Part shown: positions 46,289 through 56,204 of the stretch, one piece after another
Numbering within the stretch: position 1 is the stretch's first letter
Layout of the letters: each line of letters begins with the position of its first letter
Sequence record: NC_018855.1
Reading direction: 5' to 3' (one strand)
Length of the DNA: 64,000 nt
DNA from: Escherichia phage HX01
Translations under genes and position numbers: made by a program
The notes under the pieces: generated by a model
The model's input: only the letters and a program-made list of their open reading frames with translations
What the model was told of the DNA's origin: nothing
Database searches by the model: none

Positions 46289-46621
46289 ATGTCTGAAGTA
46301 CAACTCCCAATTCGTGCTGTTGGTGAATATGTCATTCTGGTTTCTGAACCCGCTCAAGCAGGTGATGAAGAAGTTACAGAATCAGGACTTGTGATTGGTA
46401 AACGTGTTCAAGGTGAAGTTCCTGAACTATGTGTAGTTCATTCTGTAGGTCCTGATGTTCCTGAAGGTTTTGTTGAAGTCGGTGATTTGACTCCACTACC
46501 AGTTGGACAAATTCGAAATGTTCCACATCCATTTGTGGCTTTGGGACTTAAACAACCTAAAGAAATTAAACAGAAATTCGTAACATGCCACTATAAAGCT
46601 ATTCCGTGTCTTTATAAGTGA
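46289..46621 (+). CDS. 31: gp31 co-chaperonin (GroES analogue)
   Basis: 110 aa; [21 protein letters not shown]... matches T4 gp31 (111 aa). Confidence 0.92.
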
Positions 46622-46629
46622 TATAAATA
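46622..46629 (+). promoter_or_regulatory. Possible late promoter (TATAAATA) between 31 and rIII
   Basis: TATAAATA on + strand 117 nt upstream of rIII. Confidence 0.3.
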
Positions 46630-46745
46630 ACTATATGAAGAGAACACTCTTCTAAGCGGTAGCCTACAACTGAGAGACTTGTCGAAAGAAGGTGAAATTC
46701 AGACGAACGTGGCTACTAAATATTATCTCGAATTGAGAATTTAAA

Positions 46746-46994
46746 ATGATTAAACAATTACAACACGCTCTTGAACTGCAACGAAACGCATGGAATAACG
46801 GTCACGAAAACTACGGTGCGTCAATTGATGTTGAAGCCGAAGCACTGGAAATCCTGCGATATTTCAAACATCTGAATCCTGCTCAGGCTACTCTGGCTTC
46901 TGAACTGGAAGCTAAAGATGAATTGAAATATGCTAAGCCTCTGGCTTCTGCAGCACGCAAAGCAGTTCGTCATTTTGTTATTACCCTGAAGTAA
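46746..46994 (+). CDS. rIII: rIII lysis inhibition accessory protein
   Basis: 82 aa (T4 rIII 82 aa); position downstream of gene 31. Confidence 0.75.
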   Translation: MIKQLQHALELQRNAWNNGHENYGASIDVEAEALEILRYFKHLNPAQATLASELEAKDELKYAKPLASAARKAVRHFVITLK

Positions 46995-47256
46995 GTTAAA
47001 TCGAGGAGCCGTCGAATTGTCTGATTATCGATTTGCGAATCGGTATGTTTTAGAAGTACCGCCCCGACAATTTTACGGTGTACCTCTTGAATGTTACTAT
47101 CATGCGTCAGAAAAGTGTTATCTGTGTAAGTCTTGGTGGTATGATGACGAGGTTTATGGTTATCCTGTCGTTAAATATCCAAAACCTATGTTCCCCTTGA
47201 GGGCTTGAGCAGGCAATGTCAATAAGTCCTGCATTTTCATTTAAAGAGAATTTATA

Positions 47257-47436
47257 ATGGCAAAACAAGCTAAAGCAAAGAAAGCAGTTGAAAAGAAAGT
47301 TGATGGTACCTCTAAACGCGCTGGATACAAGCGTGGGTCGAACTCTCGTATTAATCAAACAGTTGAGAAGATCATGCGCAGAGCACGTGCAGTTCTTCGA
47401 GATGATGCTTCTCGTTTTGGAAAGGTTGTTGCATAA
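47257..47436 (+). CDS. Small Lys/Arg-rich protein (59 aa)
   Basis: Below ORF-track cutoff; MAKQAKAKKAVEKKVDGTSKRAGYKRGSNSRINQ...; followed by UUCG hairpin terminator. Confidence 0.4.
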   Translation: MAKQAKAKKAVEKKVDGTSKRAGYKRGSNSRINQTVEKIMRRARAVLRDDASRFGKVVA

Positions 47437-47441
47437 TTTTA

Positions 47442-47464
47442 GGGAGACTTCGGTCTCCCTTTTG
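47442..47464 (+). terminator. Intrinsic terminator after small basic ORF
   Basis: GGGAGACTTCGGTCTCCC plus TTTT; stem identical to 32489-32506. Confidence 0.8.
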
Positions 47465-47496
47465 TGCGTTTAGGGCAGAAAAAGTTTAAAAAAGAT

Positions 47497-47525
47497 GTTT
47501 ACTCTCCTGTAGGATGTGTTACTAT
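47497..47525 (+). promoter_or_regulatory. Early-type promoter (GTTTAC-17-TACTAT)
   Basis: GTTTACTCTCCTGTAGGATGTGTTACTAT. Confidence 0.5.
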
Positions 47526-47566
47526 AGACTTGTACCACCTAATCAATAAAACAATCGGAGAATAAA

Positions 47567-47935
47567 ATGAAAATCAATCTGAACTCATACATCAAATGTA
47601 AAGACCACGACGGTTATAAAGCTATCGAAATTAAAGAATTCCAGTGGATGTTATACAAAGAGCAATTTGAGTTCGTAGGTTGTATGACCCCTGAAGGTCC
47701 TTCAGATGATTTCTCTTGGAAAATTGTGCTAGCAAACTTTTTCACAGGTGACACATATGAATTAAAAACTATTATTACCGGTAAAATTCGTTCAGAAACA
47801 TATGTTGACGAAGAAACTGGTTACTCTGAAGATGTTACATGGTATCAAAATGGACGCATTACAGCAGATAACCTGATCGAAAAAATGAAAGCCAAAGGTG
47901 TTTTAAATTTAGACAATTGGATTAAAGTTGCATAA
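47567..47935 (+). CDS. Hypothetical protein
   Basis: 122 aa; promoter 47497-47525; RBS GGAGAA. Confidence 0.55.
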   Translation: MKINLNSYIKCKDHDGYKAIEIKEFQWMLYKEQFEFVGCMTPEGPSDDFSWKIVLANFFTGDTYELKTIITGKIRSETYVDEETGYSEDVTWYQNGRITADNLIEKMKAKGVLNLDNWIKVA

Positions 47936-47939
47936 AACA

Positions 47940-47969
47940 GTTTACTTTGGTACAGGTTATGTTATTATA
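47940..47969 (+). promoter_or_regulatory. Early-type promoter (GTTTAC-18-TATTAT) inside a 9-bp perfect inverted repeat
   Basis: GGTACAGGT (47949-47957) and ACCTGTACC (47971-47979) flank the -10. Confidence 0.55.
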
Positions 47970-48009
47970 GACCTGTACCAACAAACAACTTAAACATCTG
48001 GAGAATAAA

Positions 48010-48375
48010 ATGAACTACACCAACTTCGAACGCAAATATGTTTCTAACGGTATCGCTGGTTCTATCGATATGGTTTGTTTGTGGAAGCATAAAAATGGTT
48101 CAGTATGTGAAATTGAGCAGTGCATGACTCCTAATTATGTTTATATGCGATTTGAAAATGGCATCACGGTTTCAATCACGACGGAAGGTTCAAATTTTAA
48201 AATTGCATTAGATGATGATTTCCGTCAGCGTGATTTAGGTACTCATCCTTGCTGGAACGGCGTTAATCGTAAACTTCTGGTTAAAACTTGGATTCGTCAT
48301 ATCCTGAGTAACCGAGCTAAACCTGAACATCTCGAAGCAATCTTTGATGTAGTTCTTAACGAATTCGATATCTAA
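48010..48375 (+). CDS. Hypothetical protein
   Basis: 121 aa; promoter 47940-47969; RBS GGAGAA; followed by GC hairpin. Confidence 0.55.
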   Translation: MNYTNFERKYVSNGIAGSIDMVCLWKHKNGSVCEIEQCMTPNYVYMRFENGITVSITTEGSNFKIALDDDFRQRDLGTHPCWNGVNRKLLVKTWIRHILSNRAKPEHLEAIFDVVLNEFDI

Positions 48376-48382
48376 TTTAACT

Positions 48383-48398
48383 GGGAGCTTCGGCTCCC
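48383..48398 (+). other. GC hairpin with UUCG loop, no T-run (RNA stability or processing element?)
   Basis: GGGAGCTTCGGCTCCC directly before RBS of ORF 48411. Confidence 0.4.
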
Positions 48399-48410
48399 AC
48401 TGAGGAAATT

Positions 48411-49025
48411 ATGTTTAAAGTTAATACTTTTTATAAAATGAATTTTAAAAATGGGGATATTACTCCACGCCTTAAAAACATGTTCTCATATGACCTTATC
48501 GAGCCTTTTGAAGTTTTAGAAGTTACTGATGCCGGCTCGGTTTGTGAAATTAGAACTTCTGAAGGTAAAATTTATCAGGCAGGTGTTGGTAAATTTAGTA
48601 ATTGTTTTACTTTAATATTCTCGACCGATTTAGATGAGCATTTTATTGAATGTCCTAGCCCTAAGGTCTACGAAGTTCCACATCAAGAAACTAAGAAAAA
48701 TGGCCCACACGAATATACGAAGGTTGAAACTCCTCATGGCGTGATGTGGCGTCATAACTCTCCTTTTGGAAGTAAAGGAACATTTGCTCAACCGTCTAAA
48801 CCGTATGATGATGAAAAATACATCGTCGTCTTTTTATCTGAACAGGGTACTCAAGACCGTGGATGCCAACGAAGTGGTTTACTAAGTGAACTTGAAGCTC
48901 ATAACCAAGCACGTGAATTCGTTGAGAAAAATCCTGGTTCTGAAGCTCTAGTCATGAAAGCAATTACTCAATATATCACTGCTCAACCTGTTGTTCATCC
49001 GGTAGAAATTAATTTCGTTAAGTAG
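48411..49025 (+). CDS. Hypothetical protein
   Basis: 204 aa; RBS GAGGAAA. Confidence 0.55.
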   Translation: MFKVNTFYKMNFKNGDITPRLKNMFSYDLIEPFEVLEVTDAGSVCEIRTSEGKIYQAGVGKFSNCFTLIFSTDLDEHFIECPSPKVYEVPHQETKKNGPHEYTKVETPHGVMWRHNSPFGSKGTFAQPSKPYDDEKYIVVFLSEQGTQDRGCQRSGLLSELEAHNQAREFVEKNPGSEALVMKAITQYITAQPVVHPVEINFVK

Positions 49026-49053
49026 TTTACATCCAAGGACGGATTAGAGTATA
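49024..49053 (+). promoter_or_regulatory. Early-type promoter (GTTTAC-18-TATAAC)
   Basis: Spacer CATCCAAGGACGGATTAGAG resembles promoters at 1253 and 1811. Confidence 0.5.
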
Positions 49054-49079
49054 ACGATTTCTTTAGTAAGTGGAAAAAT

Positions 49080-49277
49080 ATGAAATTTTTAATAGCACAA
49101 ACAGTCCAATTAAAAGGTGTTGGAATTCCTGGGGTGATTTTTAAAGTTCTCCCTGAATTTAAAACCGCCGCTGGAATTATCAATGAAGCGTATGCTGTTC
49201 AATGGGTTGATTGGACTTCTGACATACGTATGGGTAAAGAGTTATCTCCTATTAAAGGGTTGAAACATGTTGAATAA
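49080..49277 (+). CDS. Hypothetical protein
   Basis: 65 aa; promoter 49024-49053. Confidence 0.5.
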   Translation: MKFLIAQTVQLKGVGIPGVIFKVLPEFKTAAGIINEAYAVQWVDWTSDIRMGKELSPIKGLKHVE

Positions 49278-49479
49278 ATTAATCCAGAAATTGTTAGGTA
49301 CAGAAATGGTTGAAGTTACGTATCGTGTGACTGACTGCTCGCCTATTCATCCACAGGATGAACCATTTATCAAGACAATTAAAATGCTTAAAAACGATGG
49401 TGGTTTATCTATTGAAGACCGTCTGCCTAGTTACGGTCATTGGGCTGATGTTGAAATTATAAGTGTTAAAGATGTCTGA
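49267..49479 (+). CDS. Hypothetical protein
   Basis: 70 aa overlapping neighbours. Confidence 0.5.
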   Translation: MLNKLIQKLLGTEMVEVTYRVTDCSPIHPQDEPFIKTIKMLKNDGGLSIEDRLPSYGHWADVEIISVKDV

Positions 49480-49930
49480 ATTAGAAATAAGAAGCAATTT
49501 CAAATGGCCGTCATGCGCATTAAGTAATTTCGCCCAATGGCCTTTTGTTATGGATGGTATTCAATTCGGAGGACTTGAAGGATTTCTCCAAGGATGTAAG
49601 GTGAAAAACGTTGAACAACAAAAACGTATATTTGGGTTGTCTGGATTGGCTGCACAGCAAGCTGGAAGGTCTTATGCAAGAGCTCAGGACCGTGGGACTC
49701 TCTTCTGGTTAGGAGTTCCATTTTCAAGATACTCTGAAGCGTGGAAAGAATTATACACAAATGCATATTTTGAAGCCGCGATCCAAAACAAGGGGTTTCG
49801 TGATGCCTTACAAGCCTCTAAAGGAAAAATTTTGAAGCACAGCATGGCCAGCCACCTAACAAAAGATGATACAATATTAACCGAAGCTGAATTTATTGAT
49901 GTGTTAAACCTATTAAGAGACTCTTTATGA
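49472..49930 (+). CDS. NADAR (YbiA/DUF1768)-like protein
   Basis: ORF track 49463-49930 (GTG); ATG 49472 used; segment ALSNFAQWPFVMDGIQFGGLEGFLQGCK resembles the NADAR signature (SNF..PF..DG..F...E.FQA.K). Confidence 0.45.
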   Translation: MSELEIRSNFKWPSCALSNFAQWPFVMDGIQFGGLEGFLQGCKVKNVEQQKRIFGLSGLAAQQAGRSYARAQDRGTLFWLGVPFSRYSEAWKELYTNAYFEAAIQNKGFRDALQASKGKILKHSMASHLTKDDTILTEAEFIDVLNLLRDSL

Positions 49931-50763
49931 AACCTACTATTTTGACTGATATTGATGGTGTATGTTTAAGCTGGCAATCTGGACTTCCTTATTTTGCCCA
50001 AAAATATAATCTTCCATTAGAACATATTTTAAAAATGATTCAGGACGAAAAATTTATTTCTCCTGGTAAACTATTCAATACCGACGATGACCTCGGTAAA
50101 CAATTAATAGAAAAATATAATCGCTCTGATTTTATTCGTTACTTAGCGCCTTATTCGGATGCTCTTCGAGTTATCAATAAACTAAAAGAAGACTATAATT
50201 TTGTAGCCGTGACGGCGCTAGGTGATTCAATTGATGCTCGATTGAATAGACAATTTAATTTGAATGCTTTGTTCCCAGGCGCTTTCTCTGAAGTAATGAT
50301 GTGTGGTCATGATTCTTCAAAGGAACAATTATTCGAACTAGCTAAAACAAAATATAACGTGATTTGTTACGTTGACGATTTAGCTCATCACTGTGACCAT
50401 GCAGCAGAAATTCTTAATGTACCGATTTATTGGTTGGCTCGTGGTGAACGTGATGATATTCCTCGCACTGCACAACGTGTACACACGTGGGATGATATTG
50501 AATCTCGTTTGGTTCTACCAGAGCATAATTCAGATTCAGATCGTGAAGACCTTTTAAAACGATTGGCGGATTTGCTTAAAGAATCTGGTGCAACAAGTCC
50601 AGGTGCATGGCCTAATCAAATTGGCGCTCCGTCGAATCCGTACACCTGGCGAACTCCAGGACCAACCGATATGCTGCCTCATTGGCGATACACTAATGTA
50701 GGCGAACATCCTGTTCCTCCGTATTGGGCAGTTCCACAAGGTTACGGCACAACTAAGGGTTAA
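49927..50763 (+). CDS. HAD-superfamily hydrolase-like protein
   Basis: 278 aa; N-terminal LTDIDGV (HAD motif I) and YVDD (motif IV); equivalent to T4 30.2 region. Confidence 0.55.
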   Translation: MKPTILTDIDGVCLSWQSGLPYFAQKYNLPLEHILKMIQDEKFISPGKLFNTDDDLGKQLIEKYNRSDFIRYLAPYSDALRVINKLKEDYNFVAVTALGDSIDARLNRQFNLNALFPGAFSEVMMCGHDSSKEQLFELAKTKYNVICYVDDLAHHCDHAAEILNVPIYWLARGERDDIPRTAQRVHTWDDIESRLVLPEHNSDSDREDLLKRLADLLKESGATSPGAWPNQIGAPSNPYTWRTPGPTDMLPHWRYTNVGEHPVPPYWAVPQGYGTTKG

Positions 50764-50765
50764 TT

Positions 50766-51035
50766 ATGTTTGTAGTTCATGATATTACAGATGGCAAAAA
50801 CACCACACGTGACTACGGTCACGTTAACATGTTCTTTCGAGACTGGCCATTGTTTCGTTCAGTAAAAGACGCAGAAATATTTAAAGAGTGTGTTGAACAA
50901 GGGTTCATCTACATTTCAGAATACTATGTTGAAGGACTCGGTAAATGGATTACCACTTATCAGAAAACGCTGAAATCGCTTCTAGATGAAGTGGCTTATA
51001 ATAGAACCGTAACCAAAATCGAGGACATCAAATGA
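50766..51035 (+). CDS. Hypothetical protein
   Basis: 89 aa directly upstream of ligase. Confidence 0.5.
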   Translation: MFVVHDITDGKNTTRDYGHVNMFFRDWPLFRSVKDAEIFKECVEQGFIYISEYYVEGLGKWITTYQKTLKSLLDEVAYNRTVTKIEDIK

Positions 51036-52525
51036 TTTTAGATATTTTAAACCAAATAGCTGCGATCGGTTCTACTAAAACAAAACAAGAAATCCTTAAG
51101 AAAAATAAGGACAACAAATTACTTGAACGTGTGTATCGTTTAACATATGCACGTGGTATCCAGTATTATATTAAGAAATGGCCAGGACCAGGTGAAAGGT
51201 CTCAAGCGTATGGTCTTCTTGAATTAGATGACATGTTGGATTTTATTGAGTTCACATTAGCCACTCGTAAACTCACTGGTAATGCTGCAATTAAAGAGCT
51301 CATGGGTTATATCGCTGACGGTAAACCTGATGATGTAGAAGTCCTTCGTCGTGTAATGATGCGAGACCTTGAAGTAGGTGCTTCAGTGTCTATCGCGAAT
51401 AAGGTGTGGCCTGGACTTATTCAATTGCAACCACAGATGTTAGCATCTGCATATGATGAGAAATTGATTACTAAAAATATTAAATGGCCCGCATTTGCCC
51501 AATTAAAAGCAGATGGTGCTCGTTGTTTCGCTGAAGTTCGCGATGATGGTGTTCAATTCTTTTCTCGTGCCGGTAATGAATACCATGGTCTTACTCTATT
51601 AGCTGATGAACTAATGGAAATGACTAAAGAAGCTCGTGAAAGACACCCTAATGGGGTTTTAATCGACGGTGAATTAGTTTATCATTCATTTGATATTAAA
51701 AAGGCTGTGAGCTCAGGAAATGACCTGTCGTTCTTATTTGGTGATAATGAAGAATCCGAAGAAGTACAAGTTGCAGACCGTAGCACTTCAAATGGTTTAG
51801 CAAATAAATCTCTTCAAGGGACTATTTCTCCTAAAGAAGCGGAAGGTATGGTTCTTCAAGCCTGGGACTATGTTCCTTTAGATGAAGTCTATTCTGATGG
51901 CAAAATTAAAGGTCAGAAATACGATGTTCGTTTTGCTGCTCTTGAAAATATGGCTGAAGGCTTTAAGCGAATTGAGCCAATTGAAAATCAGTTAGTTCGT
52001 AATCTTGACGAAGCTAAAGTGGTTTATAAAAAATATGTTGACCAAGGTCTTGAAGGTATTATCCTTAAAAACCGTGATTCATACTGGGAAAACAAACGCT
52101 CTAAGAACCTAATTAAATTTAAAGAAGTTATTGATATCGCTTTAGAAGTTGTAGGATACTATGAACACTCTAAAGACCCTAACAAATTAGGTGGTGTCGA
52201 ACTCGTATCACGTTGTCGTCGTATTACAACCGATTGTGGTTCAGGGTTTAAAGATACAACTCATAAAACAGTTGATGGTGTAAAGGTTCTTATTCCTTTA
52301 GATGAGCGTCATGATTTGGACCGTGAACGATTAATGACCGAAGCTCGTGAAGGTAAATTGATTGGACGTATTGCTGATTGTGAATGCAATGGTTGGGTTC
52401 ATTCTAAAGGACGTGAAGGCACTGTAGGTATTTTCCTTCCAATTATTAAAGGGTTCCGTTTTGATAAAACAGAAGCGGATTCGTTTGAAGACGTATTTGG
52501 ACCGTGGTCCCAGACAGGTTTATAA
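51032..52525 (+). CDS. 30: ATP-dependent DNA ligase
   Basis: 497 aa; MILDILNQIAAIGSTKTKQEILKKNKDNKLLERVYRLTY... and adenylation motif LKADG match T4 gp30. Confidence 0.95.
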   Translation: MILDILNQIAAIGSTKTKQEILKKNKDNKLLERVYRLTYARGIQYYIKKWPGPGERSQAYGLLELDDMLDFIEFTLATRKLTGNAAIKELMGYIADGKPDDVEVLRRVMMRDLEVGASVSIANKVWPGLIQLQPQMLASAYDEKLITKNIKWPAFAQLKADGARCFAEVRDDGVQFFSRAGNEYHGLTLLADELMEMTKEARERHPNGVLIDGELVYHSFDIKKAVSSGNDLSFLFGDNEESEEVQVADRSTSNGLANKSLQGTISPKEAEGMVLQAWDYVPLDEVYSDGKIKGQKYDVRFAALENMAEGFKRIEPIENQLVRNLDEAKVVYKKYVDQGLEGIILKNRDSYWENKRSKNLIKFKEVIDIALEVVGYYEHSKDPNKLGGVELVSRCRRITTDCGSGFKDTTHKTVDGVKVLIPLDERHDLDRERLMTEAREGKLIGRIADCECNGWVHSKGREGTVGIFLPIIKGFRFDKTEADSFEDVFGPWSQTGL

Positions 52526-52713
52526 TGAAAGCTTATTTAGAAACAGTTATTGTAGCTAAGAAGGATGGTGGAGATGTTTCCACCTCTTGCTCTCAGATTA
52601 TATTAGATTTTCCTAATGAAAATTCGTATCGGGTTTTCGTAGATAACGTTAATGGGTACGAAAAAGGCCCTAATTTTGAAGTTTATCGTACTTTGCTCCC
52701 GATTGTGGATTAA
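52525..52713 (+). CDS. Hypothetical protein
   Basis: ORF track 52504-52713; ATG 52525 overlaps ligase stop; followed by terminator. Confidence 0.45.
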   Translation: MKAYLETVIVAKKDGGDVSTSCSQIILDFPNENSYRVFVDNVNGYEKGPNFEVYRTLLPIVD

Positions 52714-52733
52714 GAGCCTTCGGGCTCTTTTTG
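52713..52733 (+). terminator. Intrinsic terminator upstream of alt
   Basis: AGAGCCTTCGGGCTCT plus TTTT. Confidence 0.7.
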
Positions 52734-52768
52734 GCATAAATATAAATTATTACTAAAAGGAAAACACT

Positions 52769-54856
52769 ATGTCTGAACAATTAAATGAAGTGTTTGAATC
52801 TGAAGGCAGTCTTCCTGTCGTCAATTTGAACCCTAAAGCTAAAGTTCCACAAGTCTGGAAAATTGGTGATATCGATACAAACATCGTAGTTCGCTTATTC
52901 TCTTACCTTTCTGAAGGCGATGCTGTAAAACAAGTTAAACTTGGCGACAAATACGCTCATGTTGTTATTATGAGTCTGTCTGAAAAGGGTAATCTCGCTG
53001 AATTGAAAAATGGCCTTGGTCCTGCTCCTATTGATGCAATCAACACCATTTTCAATACAGTATATGAACAGGTTAAAGCTCTTCGTATGGATGCAGTTCT
53101 GTTCCGATTCCCTACCAAGAAATTGAAAGGACGTGGACAACAACTTCAAACTCTTCTTGCTCGTTTAGTTTCTACTAAAACCGGTGGACGTTTTAAAGTA
53201 TTGTCGGCAATGTATCAATTCACAGGTAAACACACCTATGTGATGATGGTTCGTAAAAATGCCAACATTGACGATATTAAAGGCATCCCTAACATTAACA
53301 CAGAGTTGTACACGAAAGTAGATTCTGATGTTGGTGAAGTTTATGTGAGTAAAAAGACCGGCGAAACGGTCACCAAAGAAACGGCTATCGCTGGTTCTAT
53401 TGCTGCTGTAGAAGAAAAACGTAAAGATAAGCCTGTTATTGCTCGTACTAAAATTTCTCGTCGTGCTATTGCAGCAAGTCAATCTTTAGAAGCTGACCGT
53501 CAAGAAGGTGAGTTATTCCAGAAATACGAAAATTCTGCTAAAGAAGTTAGTGGCCCAGCTACAGCCGAATTACTTCCTGAAGCATATGAAATCGTACTAG
53601 CCCAAGCATCGTCCACAGCAAAAGGCACTTTAGTTGCTGATATCGAAAATAAGATTTATAATCGTATTGATGAATCCTTTAGATTTGCTGATGAAGTTTC
53701 TTATGGTAGTGTTATTAAGCCAACTTTAGAAAAGTTTGCTAAGAAAATTAAAACTGAAAAAACAACATCTGTTAAAGCATTAGCTGCTTTTGTTGAAGCT
53801 GCAAATGAAATTGCAGACTCTATTAAAGACGAATGGTTTGAAGATTTTAGACGTGATAATTTCCAACTGGCTGACGACGTTTTAGCTGAAGTATCTGAAA
53901 AAACTTGGAAACAACGTAAATCAGCGTTCTTGTCTAATGTGATGTATACTTATGCACGAGAATCGGCTAGAGGCACCTTTAATATAACAATGAATCGGGA
54001 CCCTAAACAATACTCTGTTGCTGAAAAACGAGCTATTCGTGAATATGCCTCTTCTGCGTATACCGATATCAATAATATGTTGTTAGGTCGTTATAAACCA
54101 GATTTTTACGATGTTGCAGATGAAGATGAAGTTAAACGCGCTATTGATGGTCTTGATTCGGCGTTCTTAAATGGAGACCGTTTACCTGAAGGACTAACGT
54201 TATATAGAGCTCAGTCTATCAGAATGCCTATTTACGAAGCAATGGTTAAAAATAAGGTATTCTACTTCAGAAACTATGTTTCCACTTCACTAGCTCCTAT
54301 TATTTTCGGTGGGTTTAAAGAGAACGTTGCCCTTGGACTTGCTCCTGAAGAAGTTCGCAAAGAGCTTAACATTGACAATAATGACGAAGGTGTTACTATT
54401 TCTCCTAGTCAAGTAAGAACAGCTATGCATGCACCAGACCAAATCCGTGTTAACGTTGGATGGGCTATTGATGGCGCCCATAAAGTTAACGTGATTTATC
54501 CTGGACAGTTGAGTAATCACCCTAATGAGCAAGAAATTATTTTGCCTAGAGGCATTCTCTTGCAGATAAATAAAATTACGGATGCGTCATCTGACACTGG
54601 TGCAGGTTTAGAATCCAACCTTAAATTTATTCAAGCTGAAGTTATGTCCTCAGACCAGTTGGACGAAGCTGTCATTTACGATGGTGATGTTCTCATGGAA
54701 ACAGGTGAGGTGGTTGCTATGACTGGTGAAATCGAATCAGATGAACCGATATCGTTCTCTTCATTTGTAGAAAAAACTAGTGCTCCTAAAGGATTGAAAT
54801 TGTTAGCATCTTTAATGGATTTAGAATCAGTTCCGTTTAAATTTGTCCAAGGATAG
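52769..54856 (+). CDS. alt: Alt, packaged ADP-ribosyltransferase
   Basis: 695 aa (T4 Alt 682 aa); position downstream of gene 30. Confidence 0.8.
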   Translation: MSEQLNEVFESEGSLPVVNLNPKAKVPQVWKIGDIDTNIVVRLFSYLSEGDAVKQVKLGDKYAHVVIMSLSEKGNLAELKNGLGPAPIDAINTIFNTVYEQVKALRMDAVLFRFPTKKLKGRGQQLQTLLARLVSTKTGGRFKVLSAMYQFTGKHTYVMMVRKNANIDDIKGIPNINTELYTKVDSDVGEVYVSKKTGETVTKETAIAGSIAAVEEKRKDKPVIARTKISRRAIAASQSLEADRQEGELFQKYENSAKEVSGPATAELLPEAYEIVLAQASSTAKGTLVADIENKIYNRIDESFRFADEVSYGSVIKPTLEKFAKKIKTEKTTSVKALAAFVEAANEIADSIKDEWFEDFRRDNFQLADDVLAEVSEKTWKQRKSAFLSNVMYTYARESARGTFNITMNRDPKQYSVAEKRAIREYASSAYTDINNMLLGRYKPDFYDVADEDEVKRAIDGLDSAFLNGDRLPEGLTLYRAQSIRMPIYEAMVKNKVFYFRNYVSTSLAPIIFGGFKENVALGLAPEEVRKELNIDNNDEGVTISPSQVRTAMHAPDQIRVNVGWAIDGAHKVNVIYPGQLSNHPNEQEIILPRGILLQINKITDASSDTGAGLESNLKFIQAEVMSSDQLDEAVIYDGDVLMETGEVVAMTGEIESDEPISFSSFVEKTSAPKGLKLLASLMDLESVPFKFVQG

Positions 54857-54885
54857 TTTACAAACACATGGATGTGTGATACTAT
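54856..54885 (+). promoter_or_regulatory. Early-type promoter (GTTTAC-18-TACTAT)
   Basis: Spacer ACACAT GG ATGTGT palindrome. Confidence 0.5.
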
Positions 54886-54914
54886 CATCCCATCAACAAC
54901 ATGAGGAAAACGTT

Positions 54915-55208
54915 ATGAAATCTATGCTTCGCTTTAATGGTCAAGAACTAGTAGTTGAAGATGTTATCCCAGCGGATGATGCTTTTAACGAAGCTGTGAT
55001 TGACGAATTGAATCGAGTATTCCCAGGTGCATTCCATATTGCTATGGAACCTCTTAAAAACTTTCGTGACCCTGAGCACACTGATCAAATTTTTGTCGGT
55101 GTAGTGACAGGTCATTTAGAAACAGAGGTACCAATGGTCGTATTAGTTAAATACTCTAAAGATGATACTCCATTCCGAGCACCAGCATTCCTTTCATTCC
55201 GTAAATAA
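54915..55208 (+). CDS. Hypothetical protein
   Basis: ORF track 54843-55208; start moved to ATG 54915 downstream of promoter 54856-54885 (RBS GAGGAAAA). Confidence 0.5.
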   Translation: MKSMLRFNGQELVVEDVIPADDAFNEAVIDELNRVFPGAFHIAMEPLKNFRDPEHTDQIFVGVVTGHLETEVPMVVLVKYSKDDTPFRAPAFLSFRK

Positions 55209-55217
55209 ACCCCTAAA

Positions 55218-55240
55218 GGGAGACGTTGTCTCCCTTTTTC
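55218..55240. terminator. Terminator hairpin between convergent + early and - late genes
   Basis: GGGAGAC-GTTG-GTCTCCC followed by TTTTT on + strand; only a short T-run on - strand. Confidence 0.65.
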
Positions 55241-55241
55241 T

Positions 55242-56204
55242 TTATAGTCCTAAAACTCTTGACGCAGAATTCACCACACCTGTCAATGTGTTTATATTAG
55301 ACACACCTCCAGCAGTCCCACCTAATCTAGAAAGTCTTGATACTGCACTTCCTAGACCAGAATCATTCTGATTATTTCCAAACATTCCTGAAACACTACT
55401 AATAAGTCCTGATTCCAGCCATTCTAAAGCAGCCTGTCTATTTACAGCACCTGATTGCATAACGCGATAAGCAAATGTTACATCAAAAACTGTTATCTGA
55501 TTATCACCGTCATACGTTAACTCAGGAGAAGAGACACTAACAGGAATACATCCAGTGAACATGACAGCGGTATGTGGTAAACCATTTCGTGCATGTAAAT
55601 TAACCTGAATATCTGCTTCGACGTCTTGTGGTAAAGCGCGAAGACCTGTTACAGGGTCTTGGACTGAGTTTACCCAGTCTTGCATTGCTCTAAAGTTAGA
55701 TGCTTCAGAATCCATTCTAAAGCTTATTACTAACGGGTCCATTTCACGGCCGGTAATTCGGATGTTCGGTGAGTTATAGTTGAAATCTGTTTCATAAGAT
55801 AATCGGTTCTCAGGCATTTTTACAGAATAAATCATTAAACCTGTATTATTATATGCCATATTGAAGAAGTCTATCAGATAAGCTCCTACTGTGAACTCGC
55901 CTAACAAGCTTTGTACCGTACGTTGACTCATTGCTCCAATCAGATATTTACTTACACCTGATTTTCGAATTAATTTCTGTGTCCCTGCTGTAATCAGGGT
56001 TGTTACGCCCTGATTGATATCACCTTGAGTCAATCCTAGCCAATCGGAATCCAACCCTAAGTTATTATAAGCAAAACTACCAATTGACGAAATTAGTGAA
56101 GACGATTTGGTTGATGGTGTAGTAGCAAATACACAACTAAACATATTGTTTCGTTGGAAATCTGCATTTATAGCTTGGTTATTAAATTCTTCTAAAGAGT
56201 ACAT
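55242..56204 (-). CDS. 54: gp54 baseplate tail-tube initiator
   Basis: 320 aa; MYSLEEFNNQAINADFQRNNMFSCVFATTPSTKSSSLISS... matches T4 gp54. Confidence 0.93.
   Translation of the reverse strand: MYSLEEFNNQAINADFQRNNMFSCVFATTPSTKSSSLISSIGSFAYNNLGLDSDWLGLTQGDINQGVTTLITAGTQKLIRKSGVSKYLIGAMSQRTVQSLLGEFTVGAYLIDFFNMAYNNTGLMIYSVKMPENRLSYETDFNYNSPNIRITGREMDPLVISFRMDSEASNFRAMQDWVNSVQDPVTGLRALPQDVEADIQVNLHARNGLPHTAVMFTGCIPVSVSSPELTYDGDNQITVFDVTFAYRVMQSGAVNRQAALEWLESGLISSVSGMFGNNQNDSGLGSAVSRLSRLGGTAGGVSNINTLTGVVNSASRVLGL

Follow-up and report, generated by a model that had tools for sequence, protein, structure and literature searches.

An intact AdfN-type NADAR gene in Escherichia phage HX01, its probable role against DarTG1, and a neighbouring putative HAD-type phosphatase

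Escherichia phage HX01 carries an intact adfN gene, a homologue of T4 gp30.3 that encodes a protein of the NADAR fold. It is very probable that this gene counters DarTG1, that the gp30.2 homologue encoded directly after it is an independent HAD-type phosphatase, and that their common neighbourhood is a matter of synteny. The present analysis establishes to which family AdfN belongs, its fold, its catalytic residues, and that the gene is intact, and by analogy the HX01 allele would be expected to behave like the T4 protein. The biology of this gene was described in 2024-2025, in work on the T4 orthologue. The window analysed is a stretch of 64,000 nt from Escherichia phage HX01 (NC_018855.1), and all positions are counted from its start.

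The adfN gene (gp30.3 homologue) is located at 49472..49930 on the + strand and is full length, encoding 152 aa; the assignment is based on PF08010 and on identity to T4 and JS09. The start codon is the ATG at 49472 and the stop codon is the TGA at 49928-49930. The start ATG overlaps the stop codon of a 30.4-like ORF in the sequence ATGTCTGA. This upstream ORF (49267..49479, + strand, 70 aa) matches phrog_2042 with an E value of 5.4e-34 and is 72% identical to RB69 gp30.4, and it is likely that the two genes are co-transcribed and translationally coupled. The catalytic codons of AdfN, all on the + strand, are E36 (49577-49579), K43 (49598-49600), and H123 (49838-49840), and residues 16-43 form the peptide ALSNFAQWPFVMDGIQFGGLEGFLQGCK that was cited in a preliminary description of this DNA. 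The JS09 protein is 100% identical to HX01 AdfN, and T4 gp30.3 is identical at 146 of 152 residues (96%). The six differences, given from the window to T4, are K11R, K51R, E89P, I120V, M125I, and H128G, which are conservative to moderate. At the nucleotide level JS09 is ~97% identical to the window over 49000-51100, and the window is from a Mosigvirus-like T4-type phage. A DNA alignment determined that the inactivating T-insertion found at nt 411 in RB69 is absent from HX01 adfN; the C-terminus (...VLNLLRDSL, then the stop) is the same as in T4, with an intact C-terminal helix. The neighbours of adfN are 30.4, 30.2, 30.1, and ligase. A scan of flanking ORFs turned up no DarT-like domain, and adfN is an orphan, as has been described for AdfN (PMC11257639).

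PF08010 (Phage_30_3) matches HX01 AdfN in Pfam with an E value of 2.4e-69 and a score of 231.9 bits (cut-off 36), and the family match is therefore far beyond chance. The alignment is full length, pairing residues 11-150 with profile positions 1-138 of 138. The preliminary description had proposed a check against the Pfam NADAR profile; that profile, PF08719, gave no match to HX01 AdfN itself at E ≤ 0.1, which formally is the outcome that the description had named as refuting. This reflects only that Pfam files the phage clade separately as PF08010, and the support from Pfam comes from the latter model. Searches of HX01 AdfN against PDB sequences and against NCBIfam also returned no match. The link to NADAR is provided by intermediate sequences, as 20 of 61 AdfN family members match PF08719 (best 1.5e-7) and the family profile matches YbiA (E 0.0056) in an alignment that places E36 and K43 on the E...K motif of YbiA. 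E36, K43, and H123 are invariant in all 61 homologues. The AF2 model of HX01 AdfN has a pLDDT of 92.6 and a pTM of 0.88, features a helix at 138-151, and shows the NADAR fold; structure prediction was another check that the preliminary description had proposed. In a Foldseek search of this model against the PDB, the only matches below E ~1 were YbiA (2b3w) and the NADARs 8bau and 8bat. YbiA was the top match with E 2.5e-4 and a TM of 0.69, and the TMq values were 0.56 against 8bau and 0.60 against 8bat. The 8bau entry is the P. nicotianae NADAR with ADP-ribose and 8bat is the DarT1-linked NADAR from G. lovleyi. Profile, intermediate-sequence, and predicted-fold evidence place AdfN in the NADAR fold. 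The original assignment of 49472-49930 to NADAR is thus borne out by the PF08010 match, the NADAR-only Foldseek matches, and the family profile against YbiA.

T4 gp30.3 has been named AdfN (anti-DarT factor NADAR) and is a DNA ADP-ribosyl-guanine glycohydrolase (PMC11257639; PMC11125620; the HIDEN-SEQ preprint, 10.1101/2025.11.20.689424). The suggestion that the phage gene counters an ADP-ribosylating toxin has been demonstrated for this 96%-identical protein in the same sources. T4 AdfN is both necessary and sufficient against DarTG1, its rescue is abolished by E36A and by K43A, the purified protein removes ADP-ribose from DNA, and a truncated RB69 allele is non-functional (PMC11257639). In vitro, T4 AdfN acts on guanosine-ADPr and not on thymidine-ADPr (PMC11125620). 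Phage NADARs feature a His in place of the catalytic Glu/Asp (PMC11543638). On this basis the host DarT1 toxin would place ADP-ribose on guanine of the phage DNA during infection, and AdfN, a stand-alone glycohydrolase with a NADAR fold, would cleave the N-glycosidic bond that joins ADP-ribose to guanine. The template would be made replicable again, allowing the phage to grow on hosts that carry DarTG1. E36 and K43 would bind ADP-ribose at its distal ribose and its phosphates, and H123 in the last strand would stand where cellular NADARs have Glu or Asp.

There is one discrepancy regarding the activity of T4 AdfN, which in two studies did not protect uninfected E. coli from DarT1 toxicity (PMC11257639; PMC11125620). 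To account for this failure, the enzyme may prefer DNA that is hydroxymethylated or glucosylated in vivo, or it may depend on a phage cofactor. The authors favour a preference for modified DNA, yet they leave a cofactor possible (PMC11257639).

The gp30.2 homologue is encoded at 49927..50763 on the + strand (278 aa), and its ATG overlaps the adfN stop codon (ATGA). It is a putative HAD phosphatase of the C1-capped, DxD type. The HAD core covers residues 1-~198 (49927-50520, +) and is followed by a variable tail at residues ~200-278 (50521-50763, +) that consists of a helix and a disordered W/P/Y-rich stretch. The protein has a Rossmannoid HAD fold with an inserted helical C1 cap. All four HAD motifs are present, namely DxD (I), S/T (II), K (III), and DD/ED (IV); DIDGV is found at residues 8-12 and YVDD at residues 148-151. 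The corresponding codons on the + strand are D8 (49948-49950), D10 (49954-49956), and D150/D151 (50374-50379). Among 50 homologues, D8, D10, G11, K132, D150, and D151 never vary and T96 is almost invariant. The preliminary description had read this ORF as a HAD-family hydrolase with motifs suggestive of a nucleotide phosphatase, and the family holds at the level of fold and motif. The HAD profile check it had proposed came out below the Pfam and NCBIfam thresholds for HX01 gp30.2, with PF00702 matched by 10 of the 50 homologues (best 1.2e-4). In Pfam no HAD model is above threshold for gp30.2 (HAD_2 reaches 15.2 bits, the cut-off being 23.8), and the NCBIfam HAD match is insignificant (TIGR01428, 12.5 against 125.4).

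The substrate class of gp30.2 can be named tentatively. The protein may be a nucleotide phosphatase, most likely one that acts on (deoxy)nucleoside monophosphates, and its variable tail is unstructured. NT5C (PF06941) has no Pfam match to HX01 gp30.2 itself and is weakly matched by 8 of the 50 homologues (best 0.002). Searching the PDB with gp30.2, by sequence and by profile, gave insignificant matches throughout, with 2jao at E 0.18 (by sequence) and 0.41, and in the fold search NT5C structures stand among many equally scored HAD matches. One homologue bears the JGI name 'FMN phosphatase YigB (HAD superfamily)', which is an automatic label. A literature search on gp30.2 found no functional study. 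T4 30.2 is non-essential, and gp30.2 would be dispensable and not needed for countering DarT.

Downstream on the + strand are the gp30.1 homologue (DUF3045; 50766..51035; PF11243 E 1.4e-26; 98% identical to RB69 gp30.1), the gp30 ATP-dependent DNA ligase (51032..52525; PF01068 E 1.9e-26; 99% identical to RB69), and alt, which encodes the packaged protein ADP-ribosyltransferase (52769..54856; PF03496 E 6e-28; 92.5% identical to RB69 Alt). The overlapping 30.4/30.3/30.2 order is the same in HX01 and T4. The run of 30.4, 30.3, 30.2, 30.1, ligase, and alt is inherited T4-type synteny and not an ADP-ribose operon. A promoter and terminator scan of 46500-55300 gave 30 promoters against 26.7 ± 4.8 in shuffled sequence; this is no excess, and the scan is therefore uninformative on operon structure.

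A T4 transposon screen bears on the roles of these genes. The section of the supplement used has no header, and we take it to be the DarTG1 screen because of where it stands in the file and because 30.3 is depleted in it. In this table, 30.3 insertions are depleted (log2FC -7.25), 30.2 insertions are neutral (-0.12, p 0.61), alt insertions are neutral (-0.01), and 30.4 insertions are mildly depleted (-1.79), the last of which is probably a polar effect on 30.3. A functional adfN-30.2-alt module, which the preliminary description had presented as a local cluster of ADP-ribose and nucleotide functions, is rejected because of these transposon data, subject to the identification of the table, and because the synteny is broken in several genera.

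The proposal that adfN and gp30.2 act together as a two-enzyme module, with the HAD phosphatase being the phage factor that AdfN needs for full activity in vivo, is distinctly unlikely. In its variants the phosphatase would process a phosphorylated product or intermediate of ADP-ribose removal, or would rid the pool of mononucleotides that are damaged or ADP-ribosylated. The start-stop overlap of the two genes is consistent with this, as is their adjacent and colinear arrangement in 984 of 1564 phage records, which extends to Acinetobacter phages of another subfamily, and one island of high nucleotide identity to T4 is shared by adfN with the 5' half of 30.2. The poor performance of T4 AdfN outside T-even infection, with the cofactor left possible, also points this way, although AdfN alone strips ADP-ribose from DNA in vitro (PMC11257639; PMC11125620) and the authors' preference is for DNA modification. 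The neutral 30.2 insertions beside the depleted 30.3 argue against the module, and no HAD neighbour of AdfN-like genes was found in Jiaodavirus, Karamvirus, Gelderlandvirus, Krischvirus, Tulanevirus, or Emdodecavirus, in phage RSP15 (Ackermannviridae according to its record), or in Brevundimonas jumbo phages. The distant AdfN-like loci checked on metagenomic jumbo-phage-like contigs likewise have no gp30.2-like neighbour. In the Vibrio phages nt-1 and PVA8 an AdfN-like gene is followed by an overlapping gene for a Pfam NT5C deoxyribonucleotidase, a pairing that favours the module; this protein is at best marginally gp30.2-like and the neighbourhood differs (gp47/gp46). The more general idea that AdfN-like genes of T4-type phages are recurrently partnered with NT5C-like HAD nucleotidases, the partner being gp30.2 in T-even and Acinetobacter phages and the NT5C protein in Vibrio phages, is also unlikely. 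If it were true, the phosphatase could take part in the same conflict, perhaps by clearing mononucleotides that are ADP-ribosylated or damaged in some other way, or it could be directed at a defence different from the single DarTG1 system tested to date.

Two further readings would assign AdfN a different substrate. It is very improbable that AdfN controls or undoes the protein ADP-ribosylation that the phage itself carries out through Alt, ModA, and ModB, a role that would explain its position near alt. The alt gene lies 2.8 kb downstream of adfN on the same strand and both proteins handle ADP-ribose; however, alt is on the opposite strand in Acinetobacter phage DP45, and many neighbourhoods of AdfN-like genes show no alt gene. 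In T4, moreover, Alt is a late, packaged protein and the 30.x genes are early or middle, which counts against such a role. In the presumed DarTG1 table the specific depletion is that of 30.3, and alt is neutral. NADARs were assayed on ADP-ribosylated bases, where they were active on guanine and inactive on thymine, and the available parts of the sources describe no protein Arg-ADPr activity for NADARs (PMC11125620, PMC11543638). It is extremely improbable that AdfN is a housekeeping N-glycosidase of the YbiA type whose substrates are intermediates of the riboflavin pathway, and that gp30.2 is the YigB-like phosphatase that goes with it. E. coli YbiA is the best structural and profile match of AdfN, and the YigB name has been given to one gp30.2 homologue, but that name is automatic. 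The phage clade features His at the diagnostic Glu of YbiA-type enzymes, as seen in PMC11543638 and in the 61-homologue alignment, and the AdfN clade is, according to the authors, nearest the DarT1-linked NADARs and not YbiA (PMC11257639). Direct genetics and biochemistry tie the T4 orthologue to DNA de-ADP-ribosylation. The preferred reading remains that of an anti-DarTG1 AdfN beside an independent phosphatase.

This case illustrates that an anti-defence NADAR is recognisable by a reader working from sequence alone, and gp30.2 belongs to those conserved genes of T4-type phages whose products have a clear enzyme fold. Among known systems, T4 AdfN is the closest. The HX01 protein has the same length (152 aa), start, and stop, and it retains E36, K43, and H123, but the HX01 genome is a Mosigvirus of the RB69/JS09 type and not a Tequatrovirus. 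Unlike in RB69, the Mosigvirus type species, adfN is not frameshifted in HX01; this RB69-type phage carries an intact gene and therefore should be naturally resistant to DarTG1. AdfN shares the NADAR fold with the DarG1/DarT1-linked NADARs (BC4488 subfamily; 8bat; E. coli C7 DarG1), and the same chemistry, hydrolysis of ADP-ribosyl-guanine, would be expected by analogy to neutralise the product of the same toxin. At 152 aa it lacks the N-terminal extension of 8bat (219 aa), it has His123 where DarG1 has a catalytic Asp, and it has no adjacent DarT gene; in T4 it cannot stand in for DarG1 in uninfected cells. YbiA (2b3w, PF08719) has the SNF...E-x6-K signature in common with AdfN at 17% identity, whereas its last-strand Glu is His in AdfN and its role is housekeeping and riboflavin-related (PMC11257639). 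Among subfamily I phosphatases of the HAD superfamily, the 5'(3')-deoxyribonucleotidases (PF06941; 2jao, 2i7d, 3bwv) share the DxD, Thr, Lys, and DD motifs with gp30.2 as well as the Rossmannoid core and helical C1 cap, and they differ from it in lacking the ~80-residue variable disordered C-terminal tail.

The NADAR and anti-DarT reading given to adfN (49472-49930, +) in the preliminary description is correct, and it has already been published for the 96%-identical orthologue T4 gp30.3; the anti-DarT role of gp30.3/AdfN is known biology, not a new one. DarTG1 resistance of T2 and T4 was mapped by Johannesman, Carlson, and LeRoux to gene 30.3, which was renamed adfN, and in T-even phages the gene is both necessary and sufficient against DarTG1 (PMC11257639). 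The same study reported that purified AdfN removes ADP-ribose from DarT1-modified DNA, that E36A and K43A abolish rescue, and that RB69 is DarTG1-sensitive because of a T insertion at nt 411, which makes the protein 15 residues shorter. In an independent biochemical study, T4 gp30.3 acted on guanosine-ADPr but not on thymidine-ADPr, and it failed to protect uninfected cells against DarT1 (PMC11125620). A T4 transposon screen again identified 30.3/adfN as the DarTG1-specific gene (10.1101/2025.11.20.689424). A three-way DNA alignment of the window, T4, and RB69 places the RB69 insertion at column 411, where it is missing from the window, and the window gene continues to a T4-type C-terminus. 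For this reason, and given the 96% identity to T4, the window allele would be expected to be functional. T4 also has an annotated internal ORF, 30.3' (window 49608-49835, +, in another frame of adfN), which is not conserved. Its start ATG is ACG in the window and an in-frame internal stop is present in both the window phage and RB69, which speaks against 30.3' being a real gene.

The window AdfN covers the entire Pfam PF08010 (Phage_30_3) profile with an E-value of 2.4e-69, is identical to T4 gp30.3 at 146 of 152 positions, and is 100% identical to the protein of phage JS09. The window protein has no direct match to Pfam NADAR (PF08719) at E <= 0.1, and searches of it against NCBIfam and PDB sequences found nothing; the literal profile test thus failed, and the NADAR relationship is carried by family profiles and the predicted fold. 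A profile built from 61 AdfN homologues matches E. coli YbiA (2b3w) with an E-value of 0.0056, and its alignment places E36 and K43 on the YbiA E-x6-K motif. PF08719 is matched directly by 20 of the 61 homologues (best 1.5e-7). The AlphaFold2 model of the window protein (pLDDT 92.6, pTM 0.88) has as its top three PDB matches YbiA (E 2.5e-4, TM 0.69), 8bau, a Phytophthora NADAR-ADP-ribose complex, and 8bat, a Geobacter lovleyi DarT1-linked NADAR, with no other PDB match below E 4. E36, K43, and H123 are invariant throughout the 61 homologues. H123 is the His that, according to a structural paper, replaces the Glu of the YbiA subfamily or the Asp of the BC4488 subfamily in phage NADARs (PMC11543638). 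Together, the profile, the homologue matches, the modelled fold, and the invariant residues make a solid case for the NADAR relationship.

Among T4-type phages, the window phage is one of the RB69/JS09 kind. Megablast with window 49000-51100 returned 673 matches among phage records, and this segment has 97.2% nucleotide identity to Escherichia phage vB_EcoM_JS09. The + strand ORFs around adfN are tightly packed. The adfN ATG overlaps the stop of a 30.4-like ORF (49267-49479, +), and the 152-aa adfN ORF is followed by the 278-aa gp30.2 homologue (49927-50763, +), whose ATG overlaps the adfN TGA, a DUF3045 ORF (50766-51035, +; Pfam DUF3045, 1.4e-26), DNA ligase (51032-52525, +; PF01068, 1.9e-26), a small alt.1-like ORF (+), and Alt (52769-54856, +; PF03496, 6e-28). 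This order is that of T4 30.4, 30.3, 30.2, 30.1, 30, alt.1, and alt, and RB69 is arranged likewise. The NADAR-like peptide and both HAD motifs, DIDGV and YVDD, lie exactly where they had been reported. A 204-aa ORF (48411-49025, +; phrog_17531, E 9e-146) sits where T4 and RB69 have gene 30.6. It has no match in a Pfam search, nucleotide similarity of window 48400-49300 to T4 or RB69 was not found, and the ORF is a lineage-specific replacement. A strong terminator-like hairpin with a 10 bp stem and a T-run (55215-55237, +) separates gene 54 from the alt.-3-like ORF that converges on it.

Sequence models scarcely recognise the gp30.2 homologue, a HAD-fold protein that belongs to phrog_420, labelled "unknown function". 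It scores 15.2 bits against Pfam HAD_2, which is under threshold, and matches mouse 5'(3')-deoxyribonucleotidase 2jao with an E-value of 0.18 in a sequence search. Precomputed Pfam domains on 98 database homologues gave none except one DUF3045 match, and wherever a source is named the homologue is a phage protein, with a single exception that is labelled Acinetobacter baumannii. A 50-homologue alignment conserves all four HAD motifs (D8-x-D10-G11, T96, K132, and D150-D151, with T96 nearly invariant). The HAD assignment of the preliminary description holds at the superfamily level. In HAD enzymes, a second motif-I Asp is found in phosphatases or phosphotransferases and speaks against a dehalogenase, and its presence here argues that gp30.2 is one of the former. 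The more specific nucleotide phosphatase remains putative; it is a reasonable guess because Pfam NT5C is matched weakly by 8 of the 50 homologues. The conserved core stops near residue 198, beyond which sequence and length are variable and many homologues have nothing. The AlphaFold2 model agrees: confidence is high in the core (pLDDT >90 as far as residue ~195), after which come a helix (203-221) and a tail predicted to be disordered. This W/P/Y-rich tail (residues ~200-278, window 50521-50763; pLDDT <55) differs among T4, RB69, and the window. Homologue lengths range from 176 to 347 aa, and a GIEY..QPT end motif common to many longer homologues is missing from the window allele.

The proposal that these genes form an ADP-ribose and nucleotide metabolism cluster with alt is not supported. 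The relevant T4 resampling table is taken from its file position and the paper's text to be Data S6, control versus DarTG1. In it 30.3 is strongly depleted (log2FC -7.25, adjusted p 0), and 30.2 (-0.12, p 0.61), 30.1 (-0.01), alt (-0.01), and 61.2 (adfA; -0.34) are not significant. T4 30.4 is also depleted (-1.79, adjusted p 0.014), probably because insertions in it are polar on 30.3, the gene that follows and overlaps it, with a contribution of 30.4 itself being possible. T4 30.2 is non-essential, with insertions at 72 of 72 sites. The synteny is also broken in several genera. A tblastn survey with an AdfN and gp30.2 fusion query found either gene in 1564 phage records, 984 of which carry both genes side by side and colinear. 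Adjacency is kept in Tequatrovirus, Mosigvirus, Dhakavirus-type, and Acinetobacter phages, is looser in Slopekvirus-like and some Aeromonas phages, and is interrupted by two ORFs in Proteus phage Pm5461. No HAD gene lies beside the AdfN-like gene in Jiaodavirus, which carries it among tRNAs, in Krischvirus, where 30.3 is immediately before ligase, in Karamvirus, Gelderlandvirus, and Tulanevirus, outside Straboviridae (Sinorhizobium phiM19, Ralstonia RSP15, and Brevundimonas Gurke), or in jumbo-phage-like metagenomic contigs. In an Acinetobacter phage alt is on the opposite strand. Alt modifies proteins. The substrate of AdfN is guanine-linked ADP-ribose in DNA (PMC11257639, PMC11125620). With differing activities, broken synteny, and 30.2 and alt neutral in the T4 table, a functional ADP-ribose cluster with alt was rejected.

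A second NADAR-HAD pairing is found in Vibrio phages nt-1 (locus L016, 5001-5952) and PVA8 (L012, 6007-6961), where an AdfN-like gene is followed by an overlapping Pfam NT5C deoxyribonucleotidase gene (E 4e-11). This pair adjoins gp47/gp46, not ligase, and the NT5C protein matches the gp30.2 family profile marginally (E about 0.003). That a NADAR gene is paired with HAD proteins of two distinct NT5C-like lineages may point to a functional connection, or just as well to an ancient gene order whose members have diverged; the T4 screen table weighs against a role in evading DarTG1 in particular. Vibrio phage D481 has a much better gp30.2-like gene located elsewhere (L015, 7941-8567; gp30.2-family profile E 5.6e-34). 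It adjoins a nicotinamide phosphoribosyltransferase gene on the opposite strand, with another gene for this enzyme and radical-SAM genes no more than about 5 kb away, a setting that may hint at a connection of the family with salvage of NAD or nucleotides.

AdfN and the 5' half of 30.2 (window 49400-50400) are far closer to T4 than their flanks are. Nucleotide identity to T4 is 78-93% in this island versus 43-78% in the flanks (30.1, ligase, and alt; comparison 50500-52600), and amino acid identity is 96% for AdfN, 64% for ligase, 56% for gp30.1, and 42% for Alt. This pattern suggests either unusually strong constraint or recombinational exchange of an anti-defence gene between Tequatrovirus and Mosigvirus. 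Such a reading fits the RB69 x T2/T4 crosses, in which exactly the adfN/5'-30.2 segment was transferred easily (PMC11257639).
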